Shown here piece after piece: positions 8,734 to 62,982 of a DNA stretch of 64,000 nt. The notes under the pieces were generated by a model that saw only the letters and a list, made by a program, of their open reading frames with translations, was not told where the DNA came from and ran no database searches. Source of the stretch: Naegleria gruberi (taxonomy: Eukaryota); NCBI GenBank assembly GCA_000004985.1, contig GG738880.1. One strand, 5' to 3'. Each line of letters starts with the position of its first letter. Within the stretch, counting starts at the first letter, position 1. Both the position numbers and the translations under genes were made by a program.

Positions 8734-10457
8734 TTAACAAGTATATGAACCATTCCAATTCAAAAATACATAGGCACTTTCCAAAATGGATGGATTTGCT
8801 GGAGTATACATGAATACAAACTTGATTGACATTTCTGCCAATTTACCTTCTTTCAGCTTGATCATGGCTCTGGCAGTTCTTTCAGCTCTGAGATGAGATT
8901 GTTGCAAAACAGCAAGTCCATTATCGACATGTGAAATTATTGTTTCTCTAGTTGCCTTGGCTTCACATAACAAATTGAGTTGAGTTTGAATGAAATCAGG
9001 GCCCATAATTGAATCCAATCGAGTCAATGGTTGCTCTTCAAACATGGTAGAGAGTGGATCGCTCACATACTGAACAGATGTAAAATCAGAACCAACAGCA
9101 ACAACACCCAATGGCTTTTCAACAAGTTGTGATGGAGTAGTGGCATCATTCACTGGATAGACATTAGTTGATGTTGAAGTAAGTGTTGTAATAATTGATG
9201 GAGTTGTTGGAGCATGCGCAATATCAGAAGAAGTCATAATCTCAACCTTAGAGAGTTTTGGTTTGGTTTCAAAGTTTTGCTCTGCTTCATTTGGAGATGA
9301 TTTTCTCTTCTTTGATTCGGCTGAGGTTTTAGCTTTGGTCTTTTTACCAGATTTACCATTTTTATCCAATGCCACTGAGGTATTATTTGATTCGATATCT
9401 TGATTTGAACCCATTGTTGATCTTCCTCTCTTCTTGGTTGATTTCATTTCCACACATTCCAAACCCAATCTTACGCATCTTTCACATGGTCGTTCGAAAC
9501 CACATCTTGTATGACGTTTCTGACATTCAACACATGCTTTGCTTGCTCTCTTTCTGCCATTAGGATAGGGTGAATTCTTTTCTTGACTATTGGTTGGAGA
9601 GCTAGTTCTTGTACTGCTCTTATCTCCAGTTGGAGTTGTATTGACATTGGCATGTCCACGTTGTTTTTGGCCATTTGAACTATTGCCAGAAGAATGAGAT
9701 GGTGATTTAACATCATGTTGTTGATCTTGCTCATCCTCAGTTAAATGATCAAAATCATCATCTTCTTCCTCAGCATGCTTTCTATTCGAAACAGTTCGAT
9801 TCTTCCTTGATTGTCTTTGTGGAGAAGTTGCAACAATAGTTGGATTGAAAGAATGATGATCTTCAATATCGAATGAAGTTAGTGGTTCTGAATTATCCAA
9901 CAAGTGAATAAAATCTTCCTCTCCTTTCAAAATTGAAACCATGCCATCCACATGTTCAGGTGAAAAGAAGCCCTGATGTGGCTGATGTTGTTGTGATGAT
10001 GATTATTATTCATGTGAGTGGTATCTACATTATAGTGGTGGAAAGTTGTTGTTGCATTATTGTTTACATGTTGTTGGAATGCTTGTTGTGGATTGGAATG
10101 TTGTTGTGGATTGTTGTGATAGAAATGTTGGTCAGGGAGATTTGAGTCGTGATAGTAAGAAGGAAGCATCATATTCTGTTTCGAATTGTGATGTTGGGAA
10201 AGGATGGCTTGATTTCTCGAATAGATATCCATCAGGGATTGTTTAGTAACTAATCCATTCATCATCATTGATTCCATAGTGTGGTCAATTTGTGCACCAC
10301 CATGTTCCAAGTAAGGATGCTGACTTGGCATTGAATAATTGTTATTATTATTCAATGGTGGCATATAGGATGGAAATGAATTCACGAGATTACCATTGTT
10401 AATAGTACTATTATTTGTTGCTGAATTATTTGCTGCTGACATGACACGTGTAGCCAT
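8734..10457 (-). CDS. Zn(II)2Cys6 (GAL4-type) binuclear-cluster transcription factor. Two ORFs (9927..10457 and 8734..9951) are joined either by a 47- or 56-nt intron or by a frameshift.
   Basis: ATG at 10457 opens an Asn/His/Gln-rich N-terminus. The downstream ORF carries a perfect C-X2-C-X6-C-X5-C-X2-C-X6-C signature with basic residues (ACVECQKRHTRCGFERPCERCVRLGLEC). The two frames differ by +1. A GTAGAT donor at minus-strand position 10028 paired with either ATCAG acceptor (intron 9982..10028 or 9973..10028) restores the frame. Confidence 0.65.
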
Positions 10458-12132: not shown

Positions 12133-13359
12133 TTAAATCTTAATATTCTTCGAGTATTTAAGGTGAAGAATGATTGCTGAATAGACAAGTAGACTGTGAG
12201 CATACTTGATGTCTGTGTTAGTGATTTCTACATAAAGACCTCCCTTCAATTTGTCAAATGCCAACAGTTGAGCACGTTTTCTATACTTCCTTTCTTTTTC
12301 TGTTACAAGATCAGACTTGGTTCCAACTAATACCACTTCCATTGGATTGTGTTGTTCCAAATCTTTGATGTGCCTATCCAATCTATCCAAAGTTAGTGCA
12401 CTATTACTTAAATCAAACATGGCAAATGCTACATGTCCTCCTCTGTAGTATATTGGAGATAGTGTTGCAAATCTCTCTGGACCACTGTAATCCCACAATT
12501 GCAATTCAGAGATGGAATTGGGAATGAGTTTGTATCTTTGTTTCAAGAAGGAAGCTCCAATGGTCGGCATGTCTTCCTTTTGTCTACAATTAATATTCTT
12601 AATGGCACACTCCAAAGTGGATGTCTTTCCCACATAACAGTCACCAAGCATGATTACTTTGAAAATTTGTGTCCCCTCAGTGATCATTGGTTTGTTTGGT
12701 TTCCTTTCAATTTGAATCGATGATGCTGAACTGTTATTTTTAAAGAATGATGACAAGTAATGTAAAACTGAACTCATAACACCACTACTATTCTTTTCAT
12801 CTGATTTCTTCTCAATTTCTACTTTGGAATTATTAGAAACAACTTGATCTGAATTAATAGGACTTTCCACCTTCCCAAAGAATTCACTATAACACTCTAT
12901 CATTTCCAATTCAGTTCCAAACCATTCATATTCTTTCTTACAAAAATCCATTGTAATCGTTGCATGCAAATTTTGTGTTCTAACCTCACCCATCTTGGTT
13001 ACCCCAATCAATCGAGTCGCCAATTCATAAACATGTTCCTTAAACATCATCTTGATGAAATTTCTTCCCATTCTACTTTGAAAAAGGCTTGAAAATGCTT
13101 CATCACCACCACTATTATTCGAATCATCATCAACCAATTGCGCATAATCTTGATAACGTTTCCAAATGATCGGAAGGGAAATCTCCCTCCACGACCTACA
13201 AACTCTCACCACGGAAAAGATCAAGTGGGTCATGGATAAATGTTGGAAAATCTCTCCAGTGAGTTCATCCGGAAGGGTGGAAAATATTTCCTGGAAGGAA
13301 TACTGCTTGGTTTTAGAGTTGAAAAACAGGCGAGTGAGGGCTGAATTGTTGTTGATCAT
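12133..13359 (-). CDS. F-box domain plus Ras-superfamily small GTPase fusion protein, 408 aa.
   Basis: ATG start. The N-terminal F-box reads LPDELTGEIFQHLSMTHLIFSVVRVCRSWREI. The C-terminal G-domain has G1 GDCYVGKTS, G3 WDYSGPERF (DxxG) and G4 VGTKSD (NKxD-like), with switch regions recognisable. Confidence 0.7.
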   Translation of the reverse strand: MINNNSALTRLFFNSKTKQYSFQEIFSTLPDELTGEIFQHLSMTHLIFSVVRVCRSWREISLPIIWKRYQDYAQLVDDDSNNSGGDEAFSSLFQSRMGRNFIKMMFKEHVYELATRLIGVTKMGEVRTQNLHATITMDFCKKEYEWFGTELEMIECYSEFFGKVESPINSDQVVSNNSKVEIEKKSDEKNSSGVMSSVLHYLSSFFKNNSSASSIQIERKPNKPMITEGTQIFKVIMLGDCYVGKTSTLECAIKNINCRQKEDMPTIGASFLKQRYKLIPNSISELQLWDYSGPERFATLSPIYYRGGHVAFAMFDLSNSALTLDRLDRHIKDLEQHNPMEVVLVGTKSDLVTEKERKYRKRAQLLAFDKLKGGLYVEITNTDIKYAHSLLVYSAIILHLKYSKNIKI

Positions 13360-13484: not shown

Positions 13485-14459
13485 CTAAGGAATGAGTAAA
13501 ATCTTGCCAGTACTTTTACGTTGTTCCAAAAATTCATGAGCTAGAGCTCCCTCACTCAATTTGAAATTCTTCCACTCACTAATTGTAATCTTTTTTTGAG
13601 AAATCCATGAAAATAATTCAGTGGAACGTTTCAATCTCTCCTCCCTACTTGTTAGGACATTCCACAAGTCGCCACCAGTGAGTGTTTTTGAGCCATCCAT
13701 TAACATTCGTGGATTGATGAGTGGAGGATCGCCACCTGCCATTCCATAGAATACGACAGTTCCTCCAATTTTTGTAATTTTGAATGAGTCCATGATTGTT
13801 GAACCAACTGATTCGTAGACTACGTTAACACCTATTTGATTGGTCAATTGAAGTATTTGTTCAGTCCAATTATCCTTATATAGAAAAACATGATCTGCTC
13901 CAATTTGTTTTGCAATTTCTGCCTTTTCTTCACTTGAAGTCAGTCCAATAACTGTTCCTCCCAATAATTTGATAATTTGGGTAAGCAATTGACCAACTCC
14001 ACCTGCCACTGCATGCACCACTGCAACAGTTCCCTCCTTCACAACAAATGAATCTCTTGTCAAATAATGAGCTGTCAATCCTTGCAACAAGACAGCTGCT
14101 GCCATCTCTGATGAAATCTCATCTGGCAGAGGAATTGCCTTCTCCACAGTAACTTTCACCAATTGAGCATTGGCATGAGGCACATCAGCAAAACCAACTC
14201 TCATCCCCACTCGAATCAAATCAGAGTTCACCTCACTTCCAATCTCTTCTACAATTCCAGCCCCTTCATATCCCAAAATATAGGGAGGTTCTCCCACCAA
14301 ATGATAATTTCCATTCCTTCTGTAAATATCTGCAAAATTCAAGCCAATGGCCTGAGTCCTAACCAACACATCATTCTTTCCAATTTGTGGTTTTTCCAAT
14401 TCTTTCATGTAGAGAACTTGAGAAGCTTCTCCGAATCGATCAAAAACAAGAGCTTGCAT
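13485..14459 (-). CDS. NADPH:quinone oxidoreductase, zeta-crystallin-like, of the medium-chain dehydrogenase/reductase family, 324 aa.
   Basis: Full-length MDR architecture. The N-terminal GroES-like fold reads MQALVFDRFGE...VLVRTQAIGLNFADIY...GYEGAGIVEEIGSEV. The Rossmann nucleotide-binding motif AVAGGVGQLLTQIIKLLG is present. The length is typical of Qor enzymes. Confidence 0.85.
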   Translation of the reverse strand: MQALVFDRFGEASQVLYMKELEKPQIGKNDVLVRTQAIGLNFADIYRRNGNYHLVGEPPYILGYEGAGIVEEIGSEVNSDLIRVGMRVGFADVPHANAQLVKVTVEKAIPLPDEISSEMAAAVLLQGLTAHYLTRDSFVVKEGTVAVVHAVAGGVGQLLTQIIKLLGGTVIGLTSSEEKAEIAKQIGADHVFLYKDNWTEQILQLTNQIGVNVVYESVGSTIMDSFKITKIGGTVVFYGMAGGDPPLINPRMLMDGSKTLTGGDLWNVLTSREERLKRSTELFSWISQKKITISEWKNFKLSEGALAHEFLEQRKSTGKILLIP

Positions 14460-14828: not shown

Positions 14829-16202
14829 TTATTGTTCAGTGTACTTTTTCAATTCTTGTTGGAGATTCCAATTTTCCTTTTCCAAAGCTTCAACACGTTG
14901 TCTCAATTCTTCATTTTGCTTGACCAATTCTTGTGGATTTGAAGTCTTGGCTGGCAAAACAGTCTTTGGTTGTTTGGCCTTAATTTCAACGTTTGGTTTG
15001 AAATCACGGAATTGAACATCAATTTCCTTATCTTCTGGATTCATGGAAACCAAAGATAATTCAGCATCTTGACCAGAGAAGTAATCAGAAGCAGACAAGG
15101 CAGGAGATGGAGAAGCAGTCTTTGGATAGATATCAGATTGGAACAATTCAGACTTTCTTGGAACAGTGAATGAAATTGGAGTAATTTGATTAGCAGTCAA
15201 CTTGAACAATCTGACAATTTCGTTAGAAGTAGTATCAACAGCAATCTTTGGAAGCATAGCCATACCCATTTGTGGATCAGTTGATCTAAATTCAGACAAT
15301 GAGTGAATGTATGGTTCTTCATTAGTAACTTCAAAGAATCTAATGTTACCATCACCCTTACCAGCCAAGAAGAGCAAATTAGTATCTGGATCATAGAATG
15401 GCATAATCAAACCAGAAGCCATATCAATATTAACAGTGTGCAATGGCTTTTCCAATGAACGTGGATCCCACATCATGTATTGTCTTTCAGAGGTCTTTGA
15501 GAAACCAACAGAGAACAATCTATCAGTATTGGTAATCCATTGAACACGAGATCCCTTAGTACCACCATGACCTTCAACTTCAAGAGCAACTGCACCCTTT
15601 CTAGGATCAATAATTCTCAACTTTTTATCCTTTGAAGTGGAGGCAAACAATGAACCATTCTTATTGAAAGAAATTGATTGAATATCTTTCCACAAATCTT
15701 TCATTTCAACTTGGCTCTTACCAGTTTCAATATCCCACAAAACAACTTTGTGATCTTGACCAGCAGTCAACAAGACATTGTTAGCAGTTGGATGGAATTC
15801 CAACAAACCAACCTTCTTCATGTGACCTTCCAATGTAACTGATGGTTCAGTAACAGTGCTTGTCAAACCATCTTGTGGAATTGACCAAATCTTGGCAGTA
15901 GCATCAACTGAACCAGTTGCCAAAATATATTGATTGAATGGATGGAACTTTAAATCCAAAACAGCACCAGTGTGGCCAGATAAAAGTGGCAAATCAGCAG
16001 CTTGTTTACCTGGAGTCTTTTGGTTCAAAACAGCAACTGAACCACCACCACCTTGCCATGGAACAGCAACGAACAAGGCATTAGCAGCAAGCCAATTAGA
16101 ATCCCAAGCACCAACATTTGGACGAATGTTTTGGAAGGCGAATTCTGCCTTGTATGGTTCACCGAAAACGTGACGATAGAGTGATGATCTGACAATGGAC
16201 AT
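14829..16202 (-). CDS. corA: Coronin, an actin-binding WD40 beta-propeller protein with a C-terminal coiled coil, 457 aa.
   Basis: Strong colinear similarity to the Dictyostelium coronin I recall. The N-terminal signature is MS.VRSS.YRHVFG...WDSN..AAN. WD repeats such as GHTGAVLDLKFHPFN and LEGHMKKVGLLEFHP follow. Further conserved blocks are VGFSKTSERQ, LFLAGKGDGNIRFFEV, YIHSLSEFRS and ISFTVPRKSELFQSDIYP. The tail is a heptad coiled coil (ELVKQNEELRQRVEALEKENWNLQQELKKY). Confidence 0.9.
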   Translation of the reverse strand: MSIVRSSLYRHVFGEPYKAEFAFQNIRPNVGAWDSNWLAANALFVAVPWQGGGGSVAVLNQKTPGKQAADLPLLSGHTGAVLDLKFHPFNQYILATGSVDATAKIWSIPQDGLTSTVTEPSVTLEGHMKKVGLLEFHPTANNVLLTAGQDHKVVLWDIETGKSQVEMKDLWKDIQSISFNKNGSLFASTSKDKKLRIIDPRKGAVALEVEGHGGTKGSRVQWITNTDRLFSVGFSKTSERQYMMWDPRSLEKPLHTVNIDMASGLIMPFYDPDTNLLFLAGKGDGNIRFFEVTNEEPYIHSLSEFRSTDPQMGMAMLPKIAVDTTSNEIVRLFKLTANQITPISFTVPRKSELFQSDIYPKTASPSPALSASDYFSGQDAELSLVSMNPEDKEIDVQFRDFKPNVEIKAKQPKTVLPAKTSNPQELVKQNEELRQRVEALEKENWNLQQELKKYTEQ

Positions 16203-17383: not shown

Positions 17384-20300
17384 ATGTCATCAACCCGATC
17401 AATTTTCCTTCAAATTTTCATCACTTCCTTCATTGTTTTGTTTTTTTCATCATTTAATTGTTTTTTATTATTATCAGATAATGAACATGATAATAATGAT
17501 GGAATAATCATACAATCGACAAGAGAATCAGGATTAAGTTTCGGATTGGTGGAAGCTAGTCTATTTTATGGAAATATTACACTTTCGAATATGAATTATT
17601 TGACCTCTCTTAGGTATAATCCAATTTATTATGATTATCCGAATGGAATTTTATATGCTTTTGGAGGAAATGATAGTAAGAAACGAGTTACAAAATCAGT
17701 GGCTGCTACTAAATCTTTAAGAGAAATTAGAAAAAGTAATGGAAACGTTTACAATACAACTGTTCATTCAGATTTTGGAGATTTTCAACAAATTTCAACT
17801 CTCACCACTGCTATGGTCAATTATGCTGTTTATTCGATTAATAATCCAACTGGTGGAAGATTAGTTTATTTATTTGGTGGAGATTCAACATTTGGAATTA
17901 TTCAGGCCTCTAACTCAATTACTAATCTAAATTATTATTCACCAAATTTGGCAAATATTCCACCAACCTATTTTGCACACTTCATTACTGAACAATATAT
18001 TTATTTAATTGGTGGTATTTCGAATGGTGGTGTTTATGATAATGGAATTTTCAGAGCTAATCTTTCAAGTTTATTAACTCAATGGGAAAGATTTGCTGAT
18101 TTTCCAGTAACTATTGCAAAGGCAAATGCATTTCTATTGAATGGAGATGTTTATGTCATTGGTGGAAAGAATAATGAGACTGATGATAATCGGATTGTTT
18201 ATTCTGTTCCATTGAATGATTTGGAAACACTTTCTGCTAATTTTATTGAGATTGCTACCTTGAGCCGACCAACAGTTGGTTCTTCACTCGTATTGACAAG
18301 GGATTATGGTTTCCTATTTGGAGATGAGAATGCTGGTTCTGGAGTAGGTATTGATACTGTCCTTGTTTTTCCCACAAGTGATGTTTCACAAATATTCGAA
18401 ATTGGTATCAATGATTATTATTTCTCTTATGGTGTTCCAGTTGTGGTTTCTGGAACTATTGCTAGTTTCTTTGAGAGCACTCGTTCAGAACTTGTTGAAA
18501 TTGAATTGGCATCAGATGCAGTTCCATATTGTTTCGGATTGGATGCAACGAATCCAGTTGCATGTTCGGGACATGGAAATTGTGTTGCCAATGAATACTG
18601 CAGCTGCAAGAGAGGATATTATGGCATGGATTGTTCAGTCACCTTTCTATGCAATGGAACCATTTCCTATTCTCAGAATGTGTGCAGTGGCTACGGTTCT
18701 TGTGTCAATACGGATGAATGTTCCTGTAGAGCCAATAGAGATGGAAAGTTTTGTCAATTCAGTTATTGTAGTGGTATTCTTAATACTGATCCAACAGTTT
18801 GTAATGGAAAGGGATCTTGTGTGAATTCAGTTTGTCAGTGTGAGCAGGGATTTTATGGAAGTGAGTGTAAGAATTATTCGTGTTACGAAATACCTTCCAC
18901 TAATTCTTCAGCTGCATGTTCAGGACATGGCACTTGCAATTCACCAAATAATTGCACTTGTTATGGACCTTATTCTGGAGACATGTGTCAGAGATTTTAT
19001 TGTGGAATTTTCTCGAATGAAGATGCCGATATGGCTTGTAGTGGGAATGGAAAGTGTACTGAACCTGGCAAATGCACATGTAACAGTGGATTTTATGGAG
19101 CCAATTGTGAATCTTTTAATTGTTATGGTGAAATATTCAATAGTTCAAGAGTGTGTAATGGAAACGGTTCATGTATTTCACCAGATCACTGCACATGTCG
19201 AAATGGCTATACTGGATCAAACTGCTCAATTCCAACTTGTTTTGGAGAGAATGGCACCTTGGCTTGTGATTCACACGGAATTTGTACAGCTCCTGATACA
19301 TGTAATTGTACAGGAGGATACTATGGCAGTAGATGTTCAATGTTTACGTGTTTTGGAGTCGATTACAAGGAACCATCTGTTTGTTCTTCTGAAGGTTCTT
19401 GTGTAGCTCCAGATACTTGTGAATGTAATCAATTCTATACAGGAAATAACTGTTCTCATTACACATGTTTTGATGTGAGAGATGACAATTCAACTTTAGT
19501 TTGTTCAGGAAATGGAAAATGTACCAAACCTAATGTTTGTTCATGTAAGGAGGGATACACTTCTGCCAATTGCTCTGCGTATTCTTGTAATGGTATTGGA
19601 CATGATAATTCAAAGGTCTGTAACTCTGTTGGTGTTTGCACATCACCAAATAATTGTACCTGTCAATCAGGTTACTATGGTTCTGATTGCCAAGTTTCAG
19701 AGTGTTTTGGAATTAGAAGTGATAATCAAAGTGTTTGTTCTGGAAGAGGTGAATGTAGTGGAAGAAATGCTTGCAACTGCTCTCAAAATTATTTAGGATC
19801 CCAATGTGAATTGACATCTTGTTTCGGCATTCTTTCGAATATATCCAATGTCTGTAATGGAAATGGAAAATGCATAGACTTTGATCAATGCTCTTGTAAG
19901 GAGGGATATTCAAGTCCCCAATGCACAGATTTCTATTGTGGAACTTTTCATTTTAATAATTCTGCAACTTGCTCCGGAAAGGGAAGTTGTGTTTCGCCTA
20001 ATTCATGCAACTGCTCAATTCCCTACTTTGGAAAGTATTGTGAAAACTTTAATTGTTTCAATATTTTGAATAACCAATCAACAGTTTGCTCTTCACATGG
20101 ATCTTGCATAGCTCCCGATACTTGCAAATGTGAAGAAGGTTATTTGGGACAAAATTGTTCCTCCTTTTCATGTTTCAACAAGACAGCTGATAGTGATGAT
20201 GTTTGTTCTGGAAGAGGTTTATGTATTTCACCAAATACATGCATGTGTACTGTGGAAGGGTTCCTTGGAATGGATTGCAACTTGTCATTGCCATTTGATA

Positions 20301-23300
20301 TTTATTTGAATGTTTCGAATAGTATTGTTATTTATAGTGATGATAATCCAATTATTGGATTCAAAGTTTTATCAAATTATAACGAATCTGATTTCTTTGG
20401 ATACAGATTAACATCTTCTGGAATTGCTCCTGTCAATCAAAAGAGCAATGAATTTACTCTTGACACTAGTCAACTTTCTATTGGCCTTACCAATTATTTC
20501 CTAATTGCCAGATTGAAGAACAGCAGAACTTCCTCATCTCTAAAACTTTCTGTTGTGAAATTACAAAAATCCAGACCATCAATTGCAATTTCCAAGTTTG
20601 TATCTGTCAATGTTCCTGAATTTATTGTTTCTAGAAATGCCACAACATTTGACTTTTATTTATTGAACTTGACAATTAGTGGGCAGTCTGTTTCTTCATT
20701 ATTTGGATGTAATTCTAAATGTTTAGCCGATTATTCTTATTAATATTTACTTGACAGGTGATTCTTTGGATTCAGTTTACAATATTTCCTCTTTACAAAG
20801 TTCTTCCTATGTTCTTATCAGTGATGCAAGCAATTCTATTGGATTTAGTCCAATTCTTCAAATTCCATCCTTTACTCTAACTAAATCTCAATTGGAACAA
20901 GCAACATTTTTACAATTTGATTTTACAATTGGATCTGCAATTGGTTCCAAGAGAATTCCAATCATTTCTGCACCAAAACCAAAGAATGGTGTACTCACAG
21001 CTAGTAGCTCAATTTCAAGAGGAGTTGCCCTGACAGATGCCTACAACATTGCATCAGTTGAGTTTTCAGCTGCCACTCAATTGTTACCTCTCAGTTATGC
21101 TTATGCATTCTATGAGCCATCACAAGGCAGAGTTCTTAGAATGAGTTCATTCTCTACTAGCTCAGTTGCCTCCATTTATTTACCATTCATTGCAAGCAGT
21201 GGAAACGTCAGTTCAGTTGACATTTATTTACTTGTTAAGGATGATTTGGATTTTATTGATCAGTATTACATTTTCACTCTAGAAGTCACACCATATTTAG
21301 GAAATACTGATTCATTGTTCAATCAAACTCTTCCAGATTCTATCAAGACAGTTTTTGCGTATGATAATTCCATCAAACAGTCGAATTCTGTTGCAGATCA
21401 AGTTGTGAAAAACATTGAAATTCCAACAAATTCACCAGAAGCATCTCTCTCTGTCATTCAACAAATTCTTCCACAAAATGCCAATACTCCATCAGTAGTT
21501 AAGGAAGTTCAATCAAAAGTTCAATCATTCCTTGGCAGTGTCCAAACAAGTCAATCAGAGGAAATGAAAAAGTATGGTTTCGTAAAGAATCCACTCAGTA
21601 GTACTGCACTCCAATCGACTTTGAATCTCATTTCGGATTTATTCTCATCCAATAGGAAATATCCAGCTACTGGAAACACTTCAACAACAGAATCTCTAGT
21701 TTTATCATTTAGTAAGATTTTACTTTCGAATGCTTTACCGAAAGTTGTCAATTCCAAAGATTCAGACCTACCAAATGTTAATTATCATTCCAGTGAAATG
21801 AATGTCACTGTCTCTTCACTAATTTTCGGCTCAACCACTGACAATGCAATTCAACAAACTCTTCATGGAACAAACTCACAACTTTCATTGAATTTAAAGA
21901 AAGTTGCCAAACAATTTGGTGGAGAATCAACAAATATTGGATTATCATTGATAACCTATTCTCAAAATGTTAAATCGGATAATTATTCTGCAAGTGTTCA
22001 ATCTGGATCAACTCTGGTTGAATTTAAATATTATCAAGATGCACAAGTAGTGACATTGAAGGATTTGGATTCACCATTTACTTTGATATTCACACCACTC
22101 AATGATCAAATCAAACAAAATTTAACACTCAACACTACGAATGTTAAATGTATGTATTGGAATGAGGAAGTGTCAATGTGGAAATCAGATGGCTGTCAAT
22201 ATTCAAATTCCTCAAAAGATTCTATCATTTGTCAATGCACTCACACAACCAAATTCTCCACTTTTATTGAGTATACTTCATCCTATTCGAACACAACTAA
22301 ATTGACCGAAACTGAACTATTGTACATTGCCAGCGTGTACAGTGCAGAGATTAGTTTTGGAATAATGTTTGCAATCTGCTCTGCCATCATTCTCATTGTC
22401 TTGATTATTTACAGGAAGGAACAACCATTACTTTCAAGATTCTTGACTCCATTCTTGGGAATGCTTGCTCTATTAGTGGAAAGTGTTTTAATTTCAATTG
22501 TGCAAAGATCTGTACTTGTTAGTCAACTCTTACCAAGTCAATCTAAAATGTGGGAATCTGGAGGCGAAACTGCCACTAATATTGTTGGAAATGTCACTAT
22601 GATTATTGTAAACACATTGAATTTGACAGCCATCTTGGCATATGTCATCCAAGTTATTAGATTCCAGCTCCTCAAATATTTATATGATGTGATAGCTCAG
22701 AAGAATAATGGTCAATCATTCATGATGAAAGTATTGAGATTCGTCACTTCTAAAAAGCTTTTCGTCACTCTGATTGTCATTTCATTAATCTTTAATTTGT
22801 GCTATTGGTTAATGTGGGTCTTGTTAGTGAGATTGAGTGTTATTACTGCATCTGTTTATACTGAGGCAGTTTCCATTTCGTATACAGTTATTATATTCGG
22901 ATATAGTGTGATTATTAGTATTATAGCAATTGTGGATATTATTTCTAGTACAAGACAAAAGAAGATTAAGAGGAGAAGAAGGTCAACTGTCAATTCATTG
23001 TCTTCAACTAGCTCAACAAAATCATCCCAGTCACTTATTCCATCAAAATCTACTCGAAGATTCTTTTATTTGGATGCTCCTTTATTTTTCAGATCTGAAA
23101 TGTTCATGTATTTGGTCTGTTTTGCACTCATGATTATTCAACAAGTTATTGGATTAGTTTCTAATAATTTCAGATTTATTGATGCAAATGCTTATGAAAT
23201 TGCAATTTATTTTGATGGAATTCGATTTGCATTTGAAGTATTGTACACTTGTGTGTATTTACTTGTATTTGGAGGTTTTGCTATTCTTGTACTAATTGTC

Positions 23301-47039: not shown

Positions 47040-48240
47040 ATGTTTGAAAATAAGCCACTAACAAACATGCAAGATATTAACTCTGGAAAAGATTATTTAG
47101 CGAGTAAAAGAAGGAAGGAATGATGTTATCGGAGAAGGAATTTATCAGTGATGATATTGAAATTAATGATAACACAAAAGCTACATCTTCAAAAACACTT
47201 TTCAATATTTCATCACCTTCGTTTAGGAAGAGATTGGAACTGGGAGAGGATGTGCCATTCTCCAATAATTTTAATAATAATGTAAATAATTCAAACAATA
47301 TTGAAAAACAACAAACGGAAACAAGTTCATCATCAACTACAACAACACCGAGACCATCATTCATCAAAGCACCTTCATTACCTTCATTATCTTTTCCTAT
47401 TAAGAAAAGTTCATCAGTTTCTGATGATGTTAAAGAGATTGAATCTAAATTGAATGCTAATTGCAAGAATGGTGTGGAAAGGGCAATGTTATACATGTTG
47501 GCAAACCGATTGAATGTCAAGTTGTTGATTGGAGTTCTATTTGTGTTATCTTTTTTAAATAGCCTTAAAACATTAAGTTTTAATCAGAATATTTTGAGTA
47601 TTGTCCTATTTCTTGTTCAATTATATACTAACTATCATAGGAAGAATATTGATATGGCCATGTCCTATGAGGAGACTTTTAAAAGATTGGATGGGCAGGA
47701 AATGCAGAGAATGGTTGTTTCCTTGGTTCTCTACACAACCAGAATACTATTCCTTCCCGAACATAACATGATGTTTATTCCAGTTCTTTTCCTTTGGTTT
47801 GCTGGAGCTAACAAGTTGTACATTTACTCAACTTTTCATGGGCTATTCCCAACATTTTACACAAGCTTTCTCTACATTATGTGTGCTTGCTACCATTCGT
47901 ACCATGAGTATATTTTGAATGGATACTCTGCTCGATTCATTGGAATCATTGAGCAATATACAGTTATGACTGGCTGTGTTTGGATGTTCTCCTATTATTT
48001 TATTAATGTGACTGGTTATTTGAAACACAAGGTAGATAAATTGCAAGACACTAGAAAAAGGTTGGAATCAGCATTAGACGCTCGTAGTCGTTTCATGGCC
48101 CATATTTCACACGAGTTTAGATGTCCAATAATGTCAAGTATAGGGTGCTTGGAGTTGTTAAAAGAAACTCCATTGAATGAAAAACAAAATGATTTGGTTG
48201 ACACAATTGTTTCTTCAAATAGTGTTCTTTTGCTTTGATG
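47040..48240 (+). CDS. Hybrid sensor histidine kinase, 5' part, copy 1, with a multi-TM sensor region and the HisKA H-box. It is truncated by the N-gap at 48241, and a 1-nt homopolymer frameshift near 47110 lies upstream of the ORF-track start 47120.
   Basis: H-box is SRFMAHISHEFRCPIMSSIGCLELLKETPLNEKQNDLVDTIV. Several hydrophobic helices lie upstream. Copy 2 (49275..) is in frame from MFENKPLTNMQD, whereas copy 1 has AGTAAAAGAAGG against AGTAAGAAGG in copy 2. Confidence 0.6.
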
Positions 48241-48290
48241 NNNNNNNNNNNNNNNNNNNNNNNNNNNNNNNNNNNNNNNNNNNNNNNNNN
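48241..48290. other. Assembly gap (50 N).
   Basis: A run of N. Flanking sequence shows the contig break falls inside the duplicated unit. Confidence 0.99.
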
Positions 48291-49734: not shown

Positions 49735-50119
49735 NNNNNNNNNNNNNNNNNNNNNNNNNNNNNNNNNNNNNNNNNNNNNNNNNNNNNNNNNNNNNNNNNN
49801 NNNNNNNNNNNNNNNNNNNNNNNNNNNNNNNNNNNNNNNNNNNNNNNNNNNNNNNNNNNNNNNNNNNNNNNNNNNNNNNNNNNNNNNNNNNNNNNNNNNN
49901 NNNNNNNNNNNNNNNNNNNNNNNNNNNNNNNNNNNNNNNNNNNNNNNNNNNNNNNNNNNNNNNNNNNNNNNNNNNNNNNNNNNNNNNNNNNNNNNNNNNN
50001 NNNNNNNNNNNNNNNNNNNNNNNNNNNNNNNNNNNNNNNNNNNNNNNNNNNNNNNNNNNNNNNNNNNNNNNNNNNNNNNNNNNNNNNNNNNNNNNNNNNN
50101 NNNNNNNNNNNNNNNNNNN
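49735..50119. other. Assembly gap (385 N).
   Basis: A run of N. Confidence 0.99.
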
Positions 50120-53752: not shown

Positions 53753-55002
53753 GATTAGTTTTGAATAGTTTTTTTAAAAATTTGAAATCATTTGAAAGGT
53801 AGTTTGATTCAATCTCGTTTGAAAATTTAGAAATCTCACCACATATGCGTTTATGGTGGAGATAACAACAATTACCTGTTTGAATATTTCCTTAACTTCT
53901 CCATTCTATTCACAACCCATCATATACTGTTAACTTTAAACGAAAATTTACAGCGCTCATTTAGAATGATTCAACTCTGTTCCCATCACTTGATGTTAAA
54001 CAACCAAATGTTTTTTCTACTTTGAAAGAGAATCTTCCTTAAAATTCGATAGGTGACAGAAATAAAAGGGTGTAGGTGTAAAAACGTCTCTTGTATCAAT
54101 AACGACCTGAGAGAACAATAGGTGACAGAAAAGAAAAAGATGTTGTTGCATTTCAGCTATCTCCCTTGATTTTTTTTGCTATAGTAAATTCGTTTATTTA
54201 AACATAGTTGTTTGGTAAATTACTTAGTGAAGATTCATATCATTGATTATATTTCTTATCGTCTATTAATGATGTAAATATGATGTTTTCATTTCTTATA
54301 TCTGTGGTCAGGTTCTCGGCGCATTTTTGTGATGCTTCCAAAAAACATGGAATGCTCCCAAAGCTGATTTACCTGTAGGGGTAATTGGATGCGCCAATAA
54401 CACCGATTTATTACTTAAGCAAATTCACTCAACTTCAACAAAGCGTATCTCAATAACAACACTGGATGTTAGAGAAACATACCGTATGGTCATTATTAAT
54501 TATGTTAACAATCATAATATCAAGTTTGTTACAGATTTGGCTCTTTACTTATCGAGAAAAGTGATTTCAAAATTTTCATATGTGGTAGTAAGACGAGCAT
54601 GTTTTCTTGGTTAATACAAATAACTGATATTCAATAAAACAGAATCTTGTAGAAAACATCAATTAGAACAAGAATAATAAATAATATTTTTATTTCACTA
54701 AGTATTAAATTTAATATTTCCTTTTTTGTAAGGAGCATTGCAAAAATACGGGAAAAACATTTCCACAGATATTGATAGATATTTAAAGGTTAAGGATAAC
54801 GGTCAAATTGAGTTGAATGGAAGTGAATATTGAGATATGTATACTACTGTTGAAGAAGTATCACCTTCACTATAATTACTGACATGAGTATAACAATTGA
54901 ACATATGATTCCTGTATCAATAATTCATTATTCAATGATTTTGATATGATGGGGTTGGATTAGATATCCACTTTTGGGTTTGGATCCCATGTCAACCCCT
55001 AT

Positions 55003-58000
55003 NNNNNNNNNNNNNNNNNNNNNNNNNNNNNNNNNNNNNNNNNNNNNNNNNNNNNNNNNNNNNNNNNNNNNNNNNNNNNNNNNNNNNNNNNNNNNNNNNN
55101 NNNNNNNNNNNNNNNNNNNNNNNNNNNNNNNNNNNNNNNNNNNNNNNNNNNNNNNNNNNNNNNNNNNNNNNNNNNNNNNNNNNNNNNNNNNNNNNNNNNN
55201 NNNNNNNNNNNNNNNNNNNNNNNNNNNNNNNNNNNNNNNNNNNNNNNNNNNNNNNNNNNNNNNNNNNNNNNNNNNNNNNNNNNNNNNNNNNNNNNNNNNN
55301 NNNNNNNNNNNNNNNNNNNNNNNNNNNNNNNNNNNNNNNNNNNNNNNNNNNNNNNNNNNNNNNNNNNNNNNNNNNNNNNNNNNNNNNNNNNNNNNNNNNN
55401 NNNNNNNNNNNNNNNNNNNNNNNNNNNNNNNNNNNNNNNNNNNNNNNNNNNNNNNNNNNNNNNNNNNNNNNNNNNNNNNNNNNNNNNNNNNNNNNNNNNN
55501 NNNNNNNNNNNNNNNNNNNNNNNNNNNNNNNNNNNNNNNNNNNNNNNNNNNNNNNNNNNNNNNNNNNNNNNNNNNNNNNNNNNNNNNNNNNNNNNNNNNN
55601 NNNNNNNNNNNNNNNNNNNNNNNNNNNNNNNNNNNNNNNNNNNNNNNNNNNNNNNNNNNNNNNNNNNNNNNNNNNNNNNNNNNNNNNNNNNNNNNNNNNN
55701 NNNNNNNNNNNNNNNNNNNNNNNNNNNNNNNNNNNNNNNNNNNNNNNNNNNNNNNNNNNNNNNNNNNNNNNNNNNNNNNNNNNNNNNNNNNNNNNNNNNN
55801 NNNNNNNNNNNNNNNNNNNNNNNNNNNNNNNNNNNNNNNNNNNNNNNNNNNNNNNNNNNNNNNNNNNNNNNNNNNNNNNNNNNNNNNNNNNNNNNNNNNN
55901 NNNNNNNNNNNNNNNNNNNNNNNNNNNNNNNNNNNNNNNNNNNNNNNNNNNNNNNNNNNNNNNNNNNNNNNNNNNNNNNNNNNNNNNNNNNNNNNNNNNN
56001 NNNNNNNNNNNNNNNNNNNNNNNNNNNNNNNNNNNNNNNNNNNNNNNNNNNNNNNNNNNNNNNNNNNNNNNNNNNNNNNNNNNNNNNNNNNNNNNNNNNN
56101 NNNNNNNNNNNNNNNNNNNNNNNNNNNNNNNNNNNNNNNNNNNNNNNNNNNNNNNNNNNNNNNNNNNNNNNNNNNNNNNNNNNNNNNNNNNNNNNNNNNN
56201 NNNNNNNNNNNNNNNNNNNNNNNNNNNNNNNNNNNNNNNNNNNNNNNNNNNNNNNNNNNNNNNNNNNNNNNNNNNNNNNNNNNNNNNNNNNNNNNNNNNN
56301 NNNNNNNNNNNNNNNNNNNNNNNNNNNNNNNNNNNNNNNNNNNNNNNNNNNNNNNNNNNNNNNNNNNNNNNNNNNNNNNNNNNNNNNNNNNNNNNNNNNN
56401 NNNNNNNNNNNNNNNNNNNNNNNNNNNNNNNNNNNNNNNNNNNNNNNNNNNNNNNNNNNNNNNNNNNNNNNNNNNNNNNNNNNNNNNNNNNNNNNNNNNN
56501 NNNNNNNNNNNNNNNNNNNNNNNNNNNNNNNNNNNNNNNNNNNNNNNNNNNNNNNNNNNNNNNNNNNNNNNNNNNNNNNNNNNNNNNNNNNNNNNNNNNN
56601 NNNNNNNNNNNNNNNNNNNNNNNNNNNNNNNNNNNNNNNNNNNNNNNNNNNNNNNNNNNNNNNNNNNNNNNNNNNNNNNNNNNNNNNNNNNNNNNNNNNN
56701 NNNNNNNNNNNNNNNNNNNNNNNNNNNNNNNNNNNNNNNNNNNNNNNNNNNNNNNNNNNNNNNNNNNNNNNNNNNNNNNNNNNNNNNNNNNNNNNNNNNN
56801 NNNNNNNNNNNNNNNNNNNNNNNNNNNNNNNNNNNNNNNNNNNNNNNNNNNNNNNNNNNNNNNNNNNNNNNNNNNNNNNNNNNNNNNNNNNNNNNNNNNN
56901 NNNNNNNNNNNNNNNNNNNNNNNNNNNNNNNNNNNNNNNNNNNNNNNNNNNNNNNNNNNNNNNNNNNNNNNNNNNNNNNNNNNNNNNNNNNNNNNNNNNN
57001 NNNNNNNNNNNNNNNNNNNNNNNNNNNNNNNNNNNNNNNNNNNNNNNNNNNNNNNNNNNNNNNNNNNNNNNNNNNNNNNNNNNNNNNNNNNNNNNNNNNN
57101 NNNNNNNNNNNNNNNNNNNNNNNNNNNNNNNNNNNNNNNNNNNNNNNNNNNNNNNNNNNNNNNNNNNNNNNNNNNNNNNNNNNNNNNNNNNNNNNNNNNN
57201 NNNNNNNNNNNNNNNNNNNNNNNNNNNNNNNNNNNNNNNNNNNNNNNNNNNNNNNNNNNNNNNNNNNNNNNNNNNNNNNNNNNNNNNNNNNNNNNNNNNN
57301 NNNNNNNNNNNNNNNNNNNNNNNNNNNNNNNNNNNNNNNNNNNNNNNNNNNNNNNNNNNNNNNNNNNNNNNNNNNNNNNNNNNNNNNNNNNNNNNNNNNN
57401 NNNNNNNNNNNNNNNNNNNNNNNNNNNNNNNNNNNNNNNNNNNNNNNNNNNNNNNNNNNNNNNNNNNNNNNNNNNNNNNNNNNNNNNNNNNNNNNNNNNN
57501 NNNNNNNNNNNNNNNNNNNNNNNNNNNNNNNNNNNNNNNNNNNNNNNNNNNNNNNNNNNNNNNNNNNNNNNNNNNNNNNNNNNNNNNNNNNNNNNNNNNN
57601 NNNNNNNNNNNNNNNNNNNNNNNNNNNNNNNNNNNNNNNNNNNNNNNNNNNNNNNNNNNNNNNNNNNNNNNNNNNNNNNNNNNNNNNNNNNNNNNNNNNN
57701 NNNNNNNNNNNNNNNNNNNNNNNNNNNNNNNNNNNNNNNNNNNNNNNNNNNNNNNNNNNNNNNNNNNNNNNNNNNNNNNNNNNNNNNNNNNNNNNNNNNN
57801 NNNNNNNNNNNNNNNNNNNNNNNNNNNNNNNNNNNNNNNNNNNNNNNNNNNNNNNNNNNNNNNNNNNNNNNNNNNNNNNNNNNNNNNNNNNNNNNNNNNN
57901 NNNNNNNNNNNNNNNNNNNNNNNNNNNNNNNNNNNNNNNNNNNNNNNNNNNNNNNNNNNNNNNNNNNNNNNNNNNNNNNNNNNNNNNNNNNNNNNNNNNN

Positions 58001-59675
58001 NNNNNNNNNNNNNNNNNNNNNNNNNNNNNNNNNNNNNNNNNNNNNNNNNNNNNNNNNNNNNNNNNNNNNNNNNNNNNNNNNNNNNNNNNNNNNNNNNNNN
58101 NNNNNNNNNNNNNNNNNNNNNNNNNNNNNNNNNNNNNNNNNNNNNNNNNNNNNNNNNNNNNNNNNNNNNNNNNNNNNNNNNNNNNNNNNNNNNNNNNNNN
58201 NNNNNNNNNNNNNNNNNNNNNNNNNNNNNNNNNNNNNNNNNNNNNNNNNNNNNNNNNNNNNNNNNNNNNNNNNNNNNNNNNNNNNNNNNNNNNNNNNNNN
58301 NNNNNNNNNNNNNNNNNNNNNNNNNNNNNNNNNNNNNNNNNNNNNNNNNNNNNNNNNNNNNNNNNNNNNNNNNNNNNNNNNNNNNNNNNNNNNNNNNNNN
58401 NNNNNNNNNNNNNNNNNNNNNNNNNNNNNNNNNNNNNNNNNNNNNNNNNNNNNNNNNNNNNNNNNNNNNNNNNNNNNNNNNNNNNNNNNNNNNNNNNNNN
58501 NNNNNNNNNNNNNNNNNNNNNNNNNNNNNNNNNNNNNNNNNNNNNNNNNNNNNNNNNNNNNNNNNNNNNNNNNNNNNNNNNNNNNNNNNNNNNNNNNNNN
58601 NNNNNNNNNNNNNNNNNNNNNNNNNNNNNNNNNNNNNNNNNNNNNNNNNNNNNNNNNNNNNNNNNNNNNNNNNNNNNNNNNNNNNNNNNNNNNNNNNNNN
58701 NNNNNNNNNNNNNNNNNNNNNNNNNNNNNNNNNNNNNNNNNNNNNNNNNNNNNNNNNNNNNNNNNNNNNNNNNNNNNNNNNNNNNNNNNNNNNNNNNNNN
58801 NNNNNNNNNNNNNNNNNNNNNNNNNNNNNNNNNNNNNNNNNNNNNNNNNNNNNNNNNNNNNNNNNNNNNNNNNNNNNNNNNNNNNNNNNNNNNNNNNNNN
58901 NNNNNNNNNNNNNNNNNNNNNNNNNNNNNNNNNNNNNNNNNNNNNNNNNNNNNNNNNNNNNNNNNNNNNNNNNNNNNNNNNNNNNNNNNNNNNNNNNNNN
59001 NNNNNNNNNNNNNNNNNNNNNNNNNNNNNNNNNNNNNNNNNNNNNNNNNNNNNNNNNNNNNNNNNNNNNNNNNNNNNNNNNNNNNNNNNNNNNNNNNNNN
59101 NNNNNNNNNNNNNNNNNNNNNNNNNNNNNNNNNNNNNNNNNNNNNNNNNNNNNNNNNNNNNNNNNNNNNNNNNNNNNNNNNNNNNNNNNNNNNNNNNNNN
59201 NNNNNNNNNNNNNNNNNNNNNNNNNNNNNNNNNNNNNNNNNNNNNNNNNNNNNNNNNNNNNNNNNNNNNNNNNNNNNNNNNNNNNNNNNNNNNNNNNNNN
59301 NNNNNNNNNNNNNNNNNNNNNNNNNNNNNNNNNNNNNNNNNNNNNNNNNNNNNNNNNNNNNNNNNNNNNNNNNNNNNNNNNNNNNNNNNNNNNNNNNNNN
59401 NNNNNNNNNNNNNNNNNNNNNNNNNNNNNNNNNNNNNNNNNNNNNNNNNNNNNNNNNNNNNNNNNNNNNNNNNNNNNNNNNNNNNNNNNNNNNNNNNNNN
59501 NNNNNNNNNNNNNNNNNNNNNNNNNNNNNNNNNNNNNNNNNNNNNNNNNNNNNNNNNNNNNNNNNNNNNNNNNNNNNNNNNNNNNNNNNNNNNNNNNNNN
59601 NNNNNNNNNNNNNNNNNNNNNNNNNNNNNNNNNNNNNNNNNNNNNNNNNNNNNNNNNNNNNNNNNNNNNNNNNNN
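55003..59675. other. Large assembly gap (4,673 N).
   Basis: A run of N. The poly-X ORFs 54974..59707 and 54992..59698 are artefacts of translating N. Confidence 0.99.
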
Positions 59676-60605
59676 ATAAAATGAGCGAGTTGGAGCATAA
59701 TCTTTGATTTTATGTCAAAGGTCTATAGTAAAATGATAGAGTTGACAACTCAATATCTACTGAACCAAAATTAATGAAATTGATATTATATGCTAATTAG
59801 AGTGTCTACATATCATGGTATTAATTTCAGTGAAAATGGAGTTGTTTCTATATCTTTCAGATTTCCAGCCATTCTCTTGAAATATCACCATGTACTATCT
59901 ACTGAATGCATTTGTTGAAATGAAATTATATAATTTGATGAAATTACACTTTATTTGAGATGTAGAACACGATATTATCATTTATTTTGAGATTGGTAAC
60001 TTTTCCTATAGTGTCATCCTTAATTGTCTTAATTGACTAAAAAAGGTCAAGGAGATATTTCAAAATATAAAATAAATTATATTTTCGAGATGTACTATTG
60101 ATTTCCAATCGATTGATATGTATTTTGTTGATTGACGAAGTGGTTCTCTATTTGAAGATTTCCTCCTTGATCTTTAAAGACAACCTTGAAATTTCACCCT
60201 TTACCTTACTGAAAGATAGAATATTCTCCAAAATGTCTGAAAATTGAACCATATACATTATTTGAGATGTTGAACATGGTGGTAAAGTTGCATAGAGTGG
60301 TCATTTTCCAGATTTTCATCCATGTCCACAGTTGACTAATTGGTATGATAGAGTTGAAATCATGAACATGAAAGTGAAAATAAACTTGATTTTCTATCTC
60401 TACTCGTAGAGTGAAGCATTTTCATGTATATATTGTTGGTTGAAGTGATGTATTTGATAGAGTTAGTGTGACTTGTCTTTCCTTAAAGTCAACCATAAAA
60501 TATCAACATTTACCTTCCCATTATACCATTTCTGATTATTAAGACATGAAATTGAATTCTATATCATTATATATCATGTACATCATTTTGGTAAAGTTTT
60601 AATAG

Positions 60606-60906: not shown

Positions 60907-60956
60907 NNNNNNNNNNNNNNNNNNNNNNNNNNNNNNNNNNNNNNNNNNNNNNNNNN
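60907..60956. other. Assembly gap (50 N).
   Basis: A run of N. Confidence 0.99.
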
Positions 60957-62932: not shown

Positions 62933-62982
62933 NNNNNNNNNNNNNNNNNNNNNNNNNNNNNNNNNNNNNNNNNNNNNNNNNN
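62933..62982. other. Assembly gap (50 N).
   Basis: A run of N. Confidence 0.99.

Follow-up and report, generated by a model that had tools for sequence, protein, structure and literature searches.

The window analysed here, a stretch of 64,000 nucleotides from Naegleria gruberi contig GG738880.1 (assembly GCA_000004985.1), is a compact scaffold of ~35% GC with assembly gaps, and it carries on its minus strand a gene that encodes an F-box and a Rab-like GTPase domain in the same polypeptide. The gene consists of a single uninterrupted open reading frame (ORF) of 408 codons plus stop at 12133..13359; its ATG is at 13359, and 7 codons further upstream there is an in-frame TAA. Both domains fall within this one continuous frame, no intron is required, and the gene is thus not split in two. 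From the N-terminus onward, the protein is composed of an F-box, a family-specific helical linker, a disordered tether of ~60 residues and a Rab-fold G domain, arranged as follows (amino acid positions, aa, are those of the 408-residue protein).

12133..13359, minus strand: complete coding sequence (CDS) of the N. gruberi F-box/Rab-like GTPase, 408 aa, stop codon at 12133-12135; corrected model of XP_002675157.1
13231..13233, minus strand: Met43, the start codon of the RefSeq/JGI model (366 aa), whose RefSeq protein opens MTHLIFSVV...
13156..13284, minus strand: F-box, aa 26-68 (LPDEL...VCRSWREISLPIIW), matched by Pfam F-box-like and F-box
12877..13155, minus strand: family-specific helical linker, aa 69-161, conserved in paralogs, helical in the AlphaFold2 (AF2) model
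12685..12876, minus strand: Ser/Asn-rich predicted disordered tether, aa 162-225, with a predicted local distance difference test score (pLDDT) <50 for aa 161-220
12145..12684, minus strand: Rab-like G domain, aa 226-405, with Pfam, PDB and Foldseek matches
12619..12645, minus strand: G1/P-loop GDCYVGKTS, aa 239-247, canonical GxxxxGK[ST]
12547..12567, minus strand: G2/switch I PTIGASF, aa 265-271, Mg-coordinating Thr retained, resembling RabF1 of Rab5/22
12475..12495, minus strand: G3/switch II WDYSGPE, aa 289-295, DxxG retained, Pro294 in place of the catalytic Gln
12310..12324, minus strand: G4 GTKSD, aa 346-350, an N-to-T variant of NKxD
12214..12228, minus strand: G5 region EITNT, aa 378-382, replacing ETSAK

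Public databases hold a shortened form of this protein. XP_002675157.1 (EFC42413.1; "small GTPase", 366 aa) is 100% identical to the window protein over 366 residues, and the RefSeq/JGI model omits 42 codons (13231-13359, minus strand), among them those for LPDEL at the beginning of the F-box, a domain that is thereby cut in half. The precomputed Pfam list of XP_002675157.1 contains Ras and Roc only, without the F-box, because the public model begins at Met43, inside that domain. The full-length model has been published: Herman et al. (2021; BMC Biol 19:142, PMC8296547) compiled a curated set of Ras-superfamily members for N. gruberi and N. fowleri, and their Table S8 (Additional file 10) lists the identical 408-aa sequence (MINNNSALTRL...) as a manually corrected XP_002675157.1, labelled "Rab" and "F-box" and carrying no pseudogene flag. 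An exact look-up of the window protein among contigs returned no record, and a variant with 4 substitutions was present on two contigs of metagenome run ERR1078381 (PRJEB11402). This environmental copy keeps the 408-aa frame intact and differs at 7 nucleotides (3 synonymous and 4 non-synonymous changes), the CDS being 99.4% identical; the whole 3.7-kb contig is 95.6% identical to the window, and the same dehydrogenase gene adjoins the F-box-GTPase gene on it. These contigs point to a very close relative, or a different strain of N. gruberi, in the sample.

These observations bear on whether the fusion could be an annotation artefact, that is, two genes or a decaying pseudogene that reads through in this assembly. 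Such an artefact might be suspected from the public model lacking its first 42 codons and from the marking of some F-box/GTPase family members as putative pseudogenes (PMC8296547). We nevertheless regard it as very improbable, given one open frame over both domains, the conservation in paralogs of the LPxEL start of the F-box upstream of Met43, the intact ORF in an independent near-identical sequence, and the unflagged entry in Table S8. Two genes, or an intron between the domains, were rejected on the grounds of the single frame, the presence of both domains in it and the upstream in-frame stop.

A preliminary description of this stretch, made from its letters and ORF translations, had read the gene as an F-box fused to a Ras-like small GTPase. 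The fusion itself is borne out: one ORF holds both an F-box and a G domain of the Ras superfamily, both Pfam profiles that the description had named (F-box PF00646 and Ras PF00071) score above cut-off with matches well beyond chance, and all strings it quoted are present (the F-box segment, GDCYVGKTS, WDYSGPE, and TKSD within GTKSD). For the F-box, F-box-like PF12937 covers aa 26-68 (E = 9e-9, 35.4 bits, cut-off 24.3) and PF00646 is likewise significant (E = 7e-6, 26.2 bits, cut-off 20.5). The F-box signature (defining pattern LPxE...VC..W) reads LPDEL...VCRSW here and spans aa 29-57, within the segment quoted earlier, LPDELTGEIFQHLSMTHLIFSVVRVCRSWREI, which corresponds to aa 29-60 (window 13180-13275). 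The domain aligns to the F-boxes of FBXO44, FBXL17, FBXO6 and Skp2 in PDB with marginal single-sequence E values (0.016-0.7). In the AF2 model, the F-box region forms helices at 31-39, 43-52 and 55-77 with a pLDDT of only ~58-72, and the Foldseek matches of the model are confined to the G domain. As judged from its sequence, the window protein fits the definition of an F-box protein.

The region that follows the F-box is conserved in the paralogs, with the motifs GRxF[IV]KxxLRKxVYE[LF]A and W..xEL..L..YF, and AF2 predicts two long helices in it (96-123 and 137-161, pLDDT ~70-80). The tether between these helices and the G domain is of low complexity and aligns poorly across the family. We searched the N-terminal half (aa 1-230) exhaustively with phmmer against 1.84 billion representative proteins and obtained only 13 matches at E<=1e-3. 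The matches that span the F-box and the following region (aa ~22-218), where their source could be named, all come from N. gruberi, N. fowleri or N. lovaniensis; plant sequences among the remaining matches cover the F-box only, and every full-length Naegleria match with F-box and linker ends in a Rab-like domain. As far as sequence similarity reaches in those 1.84 billion representatives, the module of F-box and helical linker is restricted to Naegleria. Word-indexed searches that took the protein or a family alignment of 7 members as query returned the RefSeq entry, one truncated paralog and otherwise only generic fungal or metagenomic Rab5-like proteins, and missed known paralogs.

The G domain is matched by Ras PF00071 at aa 234-367 (E = 6e-20, 71.9 bits, cut-off 21.6), by Roc PF08477 above its curated cut-off (E = 1.8e-18) and by NCBIfam small_GTP (E = 2e-12). 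That it belongs to the Ras superfamily therefore stands, although "Ras-like", as first described, does not, since both the PDB matches and a tree of the domain point to Rab. The nearest solved structure is Ypt51/Rab5 (E = 5e-18), the best PDB relatives being Ypt51, Rab5 and Rab22 at E ~1e-17 to 1e-18. Superposed on Rab5a, among others, the AF2 model (mean pLDDT 60, predicted template modelling score 0.66; G domain pLDDT ~70-85) reaches a target TM-score of ~0.72. Rab-family surface motifs are partly retained, namely IGASF, ELQLW, RFATLS, YYRGG and AMFDLS, where Rab has IGVDF, KLQIW, RFRSIT, YYRGA and LVYDIT. The likeness to Rab5/Rab22/Ypt51 extends to switch I, in which PTIGASF occurs as in N. 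gruberi Rab22, and to RabF4 (YYRGG), alongside the best sequence and fold matches. In contrast to those proteins, the window protein has Pro for the catalytic Gln, TNT for the SAK of G5, no C-terminal Cys and an N-terminal extension of 225 aa.

The phylogeny of the G domain that the preliminary description had proposed was run as a neighbour-joining (NJ) tree (176 columns, 200 bootstraps), a crude tree in which long-branch effects are likely, and it places the domain inside Rab, with Ras as outgroup, rather than with Ras. In it, XP_002677810 and XP_002676638 form a group with the window protein (bootstrap 90), and this trio sits in a Naegleria F-box/Rab-like clade (bootstrap 64) nested in Rab, the monophyly of which is weakly supported (bootstrap 54). 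The window protein is not grouped with N. gruberi Rab5/22 in this tree. Sequence comparison identifies the G domain as Rab-like, nearest to Rab5/Rab22, and not as Ras.

Several departures from a conventional GTPase are shared by this clade. In an alignment with H-Ras and N. gruberi Rabs, the catalytic Gln is kept in none of 10 clade members and is replaced by Pro in half of them (5/10), and the "ITN" at G5 recurs across the clade. The TKSD of G4 is a tolerated variant, comparable to the TKLD of Rac. The G domain ends 3 residues before the stop, its final helix being followed by just these three, which leaves no hypervariable tail; the last Cys of the protein is aa 258, and the C-terminus (...HLKYSKNIKI) has no CC, CxC or CaaX motif. 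Without a C-terminal Cys there is no prenyl anchor, and since the catalytic Gln, the SAK of G5 and the C-terminal Cys are all missing, we use the term Rab-like and not bona fide Rab. The "built-in GTP switch" of the preliminary description thus becomes doubtful: nucleotide-binding motifs are there (G1, the switch-I Thr, DxxG and a G4 of the form [NT]KxD), but with Pro for Gln, TNT for SAK and a clade devoid of the Gln, conventional GTP/GDP cycling is not assured.

How might such a protein work? F-box proteins of the SCF (Skp1-Cul1-F-box) type carry the F-box at the N-terminus and a substrate receptor at the C-terminus. We put at roughly 55% the probability that the window protein is an SCF substrate receptor of this kind, with an atypical and probably hydrolysis-poor Rab-like binding module. 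Following the established architecture of SCF, its F-box would dock on Skp1 of the Skp1-Cul1-Rbx1 ubiquitin ligase, and the Rab-like domain, which occupies the position of the WD40 or LRR domains of other F-box proteins, would be the substrate-recruiting module. The switch surfaces of the Rab-like domain may bind effector-like partners, which would then be ubiquitinated. The domain would act as a soluble, mostly GTP-loaded, hydrolysis-poor binding module rather than as a fast-cycling membrane switch, the former being likelier because the cis-Gln is lost clade-wide and there is no lipid anchor. Nucleotide state could still gate substrate capture.

Several points weigh against this proposal. Judging from the motifs, the change of SAK to TNT at G5 and of N to T at G4 might weaken or abolish nucleotide binding, in which case the domain could be a nucleotide-free pseudo-GTPase. 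RabGAPs of the TBC type supply a Gln finger in trans, and therefore the loss of the cis-Gln is no proof of a deficiency in hydrolysis. The F-box part of the AF2 model is of moderate confidence (pLDDT ~58-72). Finally, dN/dS relative to the environmental variant is ~0.33, a value derived from 7 differences, which are too few to be informative.

The similarity of the G domain to endosomal Rab5/Rab22 raises a different use of the F-box. In yeast, Rcy1-Skp1 acts in endosomal recycling together with the Rab Ypt31/32, and by analogy the F-box of the window protein might bind Skp1 without a cullin, in a non-SCF complex of membrane traffic with a role in endosomal recycling. However, the protein has neither a prenylation motif nor another membrane-targeting domain, and it shows no homology to Rcy1 outside the F-box, so that we consider this reading improbable.

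A second use would turn the ligase on the fusion itself. Auto-ubiquitination of F-box proteins is well known, and if SCF ubiquitinated the fusion, the F-box would be a self-destruction tag and the level of a short-lived Rab-like protein would be what is regulated. The same role has been suggested for the F-box of trypanosome TbFRP, a protein of Euglenozoa that combines FYVE, F-box and Ras-like GTPase, is rapidly processed and turned over, and has a proposed link to ubiquitin and turnover (PMC3593210). Like TbFRP, the window protein has its F-box upstream of a Rab-like G domain and comes from a member of Discoba. No FYVE domain was detected in it by Pfam even at E<=1, and it is therefore not an FRP ortholog; the authors of the TbFRP study found no N. 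gruberi ortholog either (PMC3593210). By their description, the G domain of TbFRP is closest to Rab18/Ypt6, which sets it apart from that of the window protein, closest to Rab5/22. A tag for self-destruction leaves unexplained why a rigid helical linker, typical of substrate-positioning receptors, is conserved after the F-box in all paralogs, and we regard it as unlikely, albeit a reading to be kept in mind, as substrate targeting and self-turnover are not mutually exclusive.

A substrate receptor built in this way has its nearest functional analogue in RhoBTB. In RhoBTB, a Rho-like GTPase at the N-terminus is fused to BTB domains, and the proteins are Cul3 substrate adaptors. The principle is the same, in that a Ras-superfamily domain that is atypical and, here probably, hydrolysis-deficient is joined in cis with a cullin-RING adaptor domain, whereas the components differ (Rab-like instead of Rho, F-box/Skp1/Cul1 instead of BTB/Cul3), the adaptor is N-terminal here, and the two fusions arose independently. 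Naegleria also encodes RhoBTB (PMC8296547).

Much of the family context was laid out by Herman et al. (PMC8296547). They described three divergent Naegleria Rab-like clades with no relatives outside Naegleria and a conserved N-terminal extension in which an F-box is recognisable in some members. They also found the F-box to be the commonest additional domain that Ras-superfamily GTPases of Naegleria (Rab, Rho and Ran as well as G-alpha) carry, and proposed "GTPase-dependent ubiquitination" for Naegleria fusions, a link between ubiquitination and nucleotide state that the preliminary description had likewise drawn. By our own count, 26 N. gruberi "Rab" rows in Table S8 are flagged F-box. The preliminary description had called the combination uncommon, which is true across eukaryotes but not within Naegleria. 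The published lists place the window protein in the Naegleria F-box/Rab-like clades (PMC8296547, Additional files 4 and 10), with which it shares the N-terminal extension and divergent G motifs; nothing categorical sets it apart, and it is an N. gruberi-specific paralog. One of the three Rab-like clades has a CaaX motif (PMC8296547), while that of the window protein does not. The gene is thus already known, as are its corrected model and the interpretation at family level. What we add to the 2021 catalogue is that 1) the truncation of the RefSeq model at Met43 persists, 2) the catalytic Gln is lost clade-wide, and 3) there is no lipid anchor. Our literature search found no functional study of Naegleria F-box/GTPase proteins and nothing usable on Skp1 in Naegleria, and Skp1, cullin and SCF are unmentioned in the supplements of Herman et al. 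(PMC8296547).

No close ortholog in either N. fowleri or N. lovaniensis came out of the phmmer search, in which the N-terminal half is matched by sequences of these two species at 25-30% identity, which is consistent with the birth-and-death evolution reported for Naegleria (PMC8296547). A family that is lineage-specific, rapidly diverging and accompanied by pseudogenes invites the thought of a Rab decoy, in which the protein mimics host Rabs, captures the Rab-targeting effectors of intracellular bacteria (Legionella, chlamydiae) and hands them to SCF. The loss of the catalytic residue with retention of Rab-family surface motifs agrees with such a decoy, as do the roles at the organism-environment interface suggested by Herman et al. 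(PMC8296547). Naegleria is, moreover, among the amoebae that Legionella parasitise, and Legionella genomes encode Rab-domain effectors with F-box or U-box (Gomez-Valero et al., bioRxiv 10.1101/350777). This support is circumstantial, however, and ordinary signalling families of Naegleria evolve by birth and death as well; we would give a Rab decoy little chance of being correct. Its more specific form, a GTP-locked or pseudo-GTPase "integrated decoy" that would capture either bacterial Rab-targeting effectors or endogenous Rab regulators for degradation by SCF, appears slightly less probable still. If such a decoy were true, the rapidly expanding F-box-GTPase families of Naegleria would constitute an amoebal innate-immunity or trafficking-surveillance system.

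The Legionella effectors resemble the window protein in having a Rab domain and an F-box in one protein and differ in being bacterial and secreted; we found no evidence of shared ancestry between them and the Naegleria family. A scan of prokaryotic G domains returned 79 bacterial and archaeal Rab-like loci, in none of which (0/79) does an F-box lie N-terminal to the G domain; the scan covered near-canonical G3 motifs only and one genome per species, and it leaves room for the Legionella F-box-Rab proteins (bioRxiv 10.1101/350777). These loci belong mostly to Asgard archaea, with some from Legionellales, and the longer ORFs among them have C-terminal, partly transmembrane extensions. We noticed that the Asgard loci (Hermod-, Borr-, Sif- and Promethearchaeota) often contain several small-GTPase ORFs in tandem, and that the few loci in metagenome-assembled genomes (MAGs) of Legionellales/Coxiella have C-terminal extensions that are apparently transmembrane. 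The Rab encoded at one locus, in a "Ferrimicrobium" MAG, has a CC motif at its C-terminus, and this locus may be eukaryotic contamination.

The remainder of the window offers a varied neighbourhood. It also encodes a dual-specificity phosphatase. A tandem cluster of F-box/GTPase genes was considered and rejected, as no F-box or GTPase was present in the 20 other large ORFs scanned. The other features are as follows.

8734-9951, minus strand: ORF encoding a DNA-binding domain of the "fungal" Zn(2)-Cys(6) binuclear cluster type (E = 1.8e-8), here in a heterolobosean genome
9927-10457: poly-Asn/Gln-rich ORF, following the Zn(2)-Cys(6) ORF
13485..14459, minus strand: homolog of zinc-type alcohol dehydrogenase/quinone reductase, the next gene upstream of the F-box-GTPase gene, ending 125 nt away
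14829-16202, minus strand: coronin (DUF1899, WD40 and WD40_4), an upstream neighbour
17384-20743: EGF/teneurin-like repeat protein, 1119 aa
20751-23831, plus strand: 1026-aa ORF that combines a GPCR proteolysis site (GPS) motif with an RGS domain at its C-terminus, directly after the EGF/teneurin-like ORF
47120-48238, plus strand: ORF ending in a HisKA phospho-acceptor domain, running into a 50-nt gap at 48241
48241-48290, 49735-50119, 55003-59675, 60907-60956 and 62933-62982: N runs (assembly gaps), the largest of 4673 nt

From its domains, the GPS/RGS ORF would seem to encode a receptor-like protein that carries its own G-alpha GAP, and the HisKA ORF is probably a truncated hybrid histidine kinase. 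The long "ORFs" at 54974..59707 on both strands are artefacts, because they coincide with the gap at 55003-59675.

The truncated RefSeq model, the clade-wide loss of the Gln and the missing lipid anchor are points that can guide biochemical follow-up of this family. To our knowledge, the fusion in cis of a cullin-RING adaptor and a small GTPase has barely been explored outside RhoBTB. Such a fusion would tie the degradation of proteins directly to a binding surface that depends on nucleotide.

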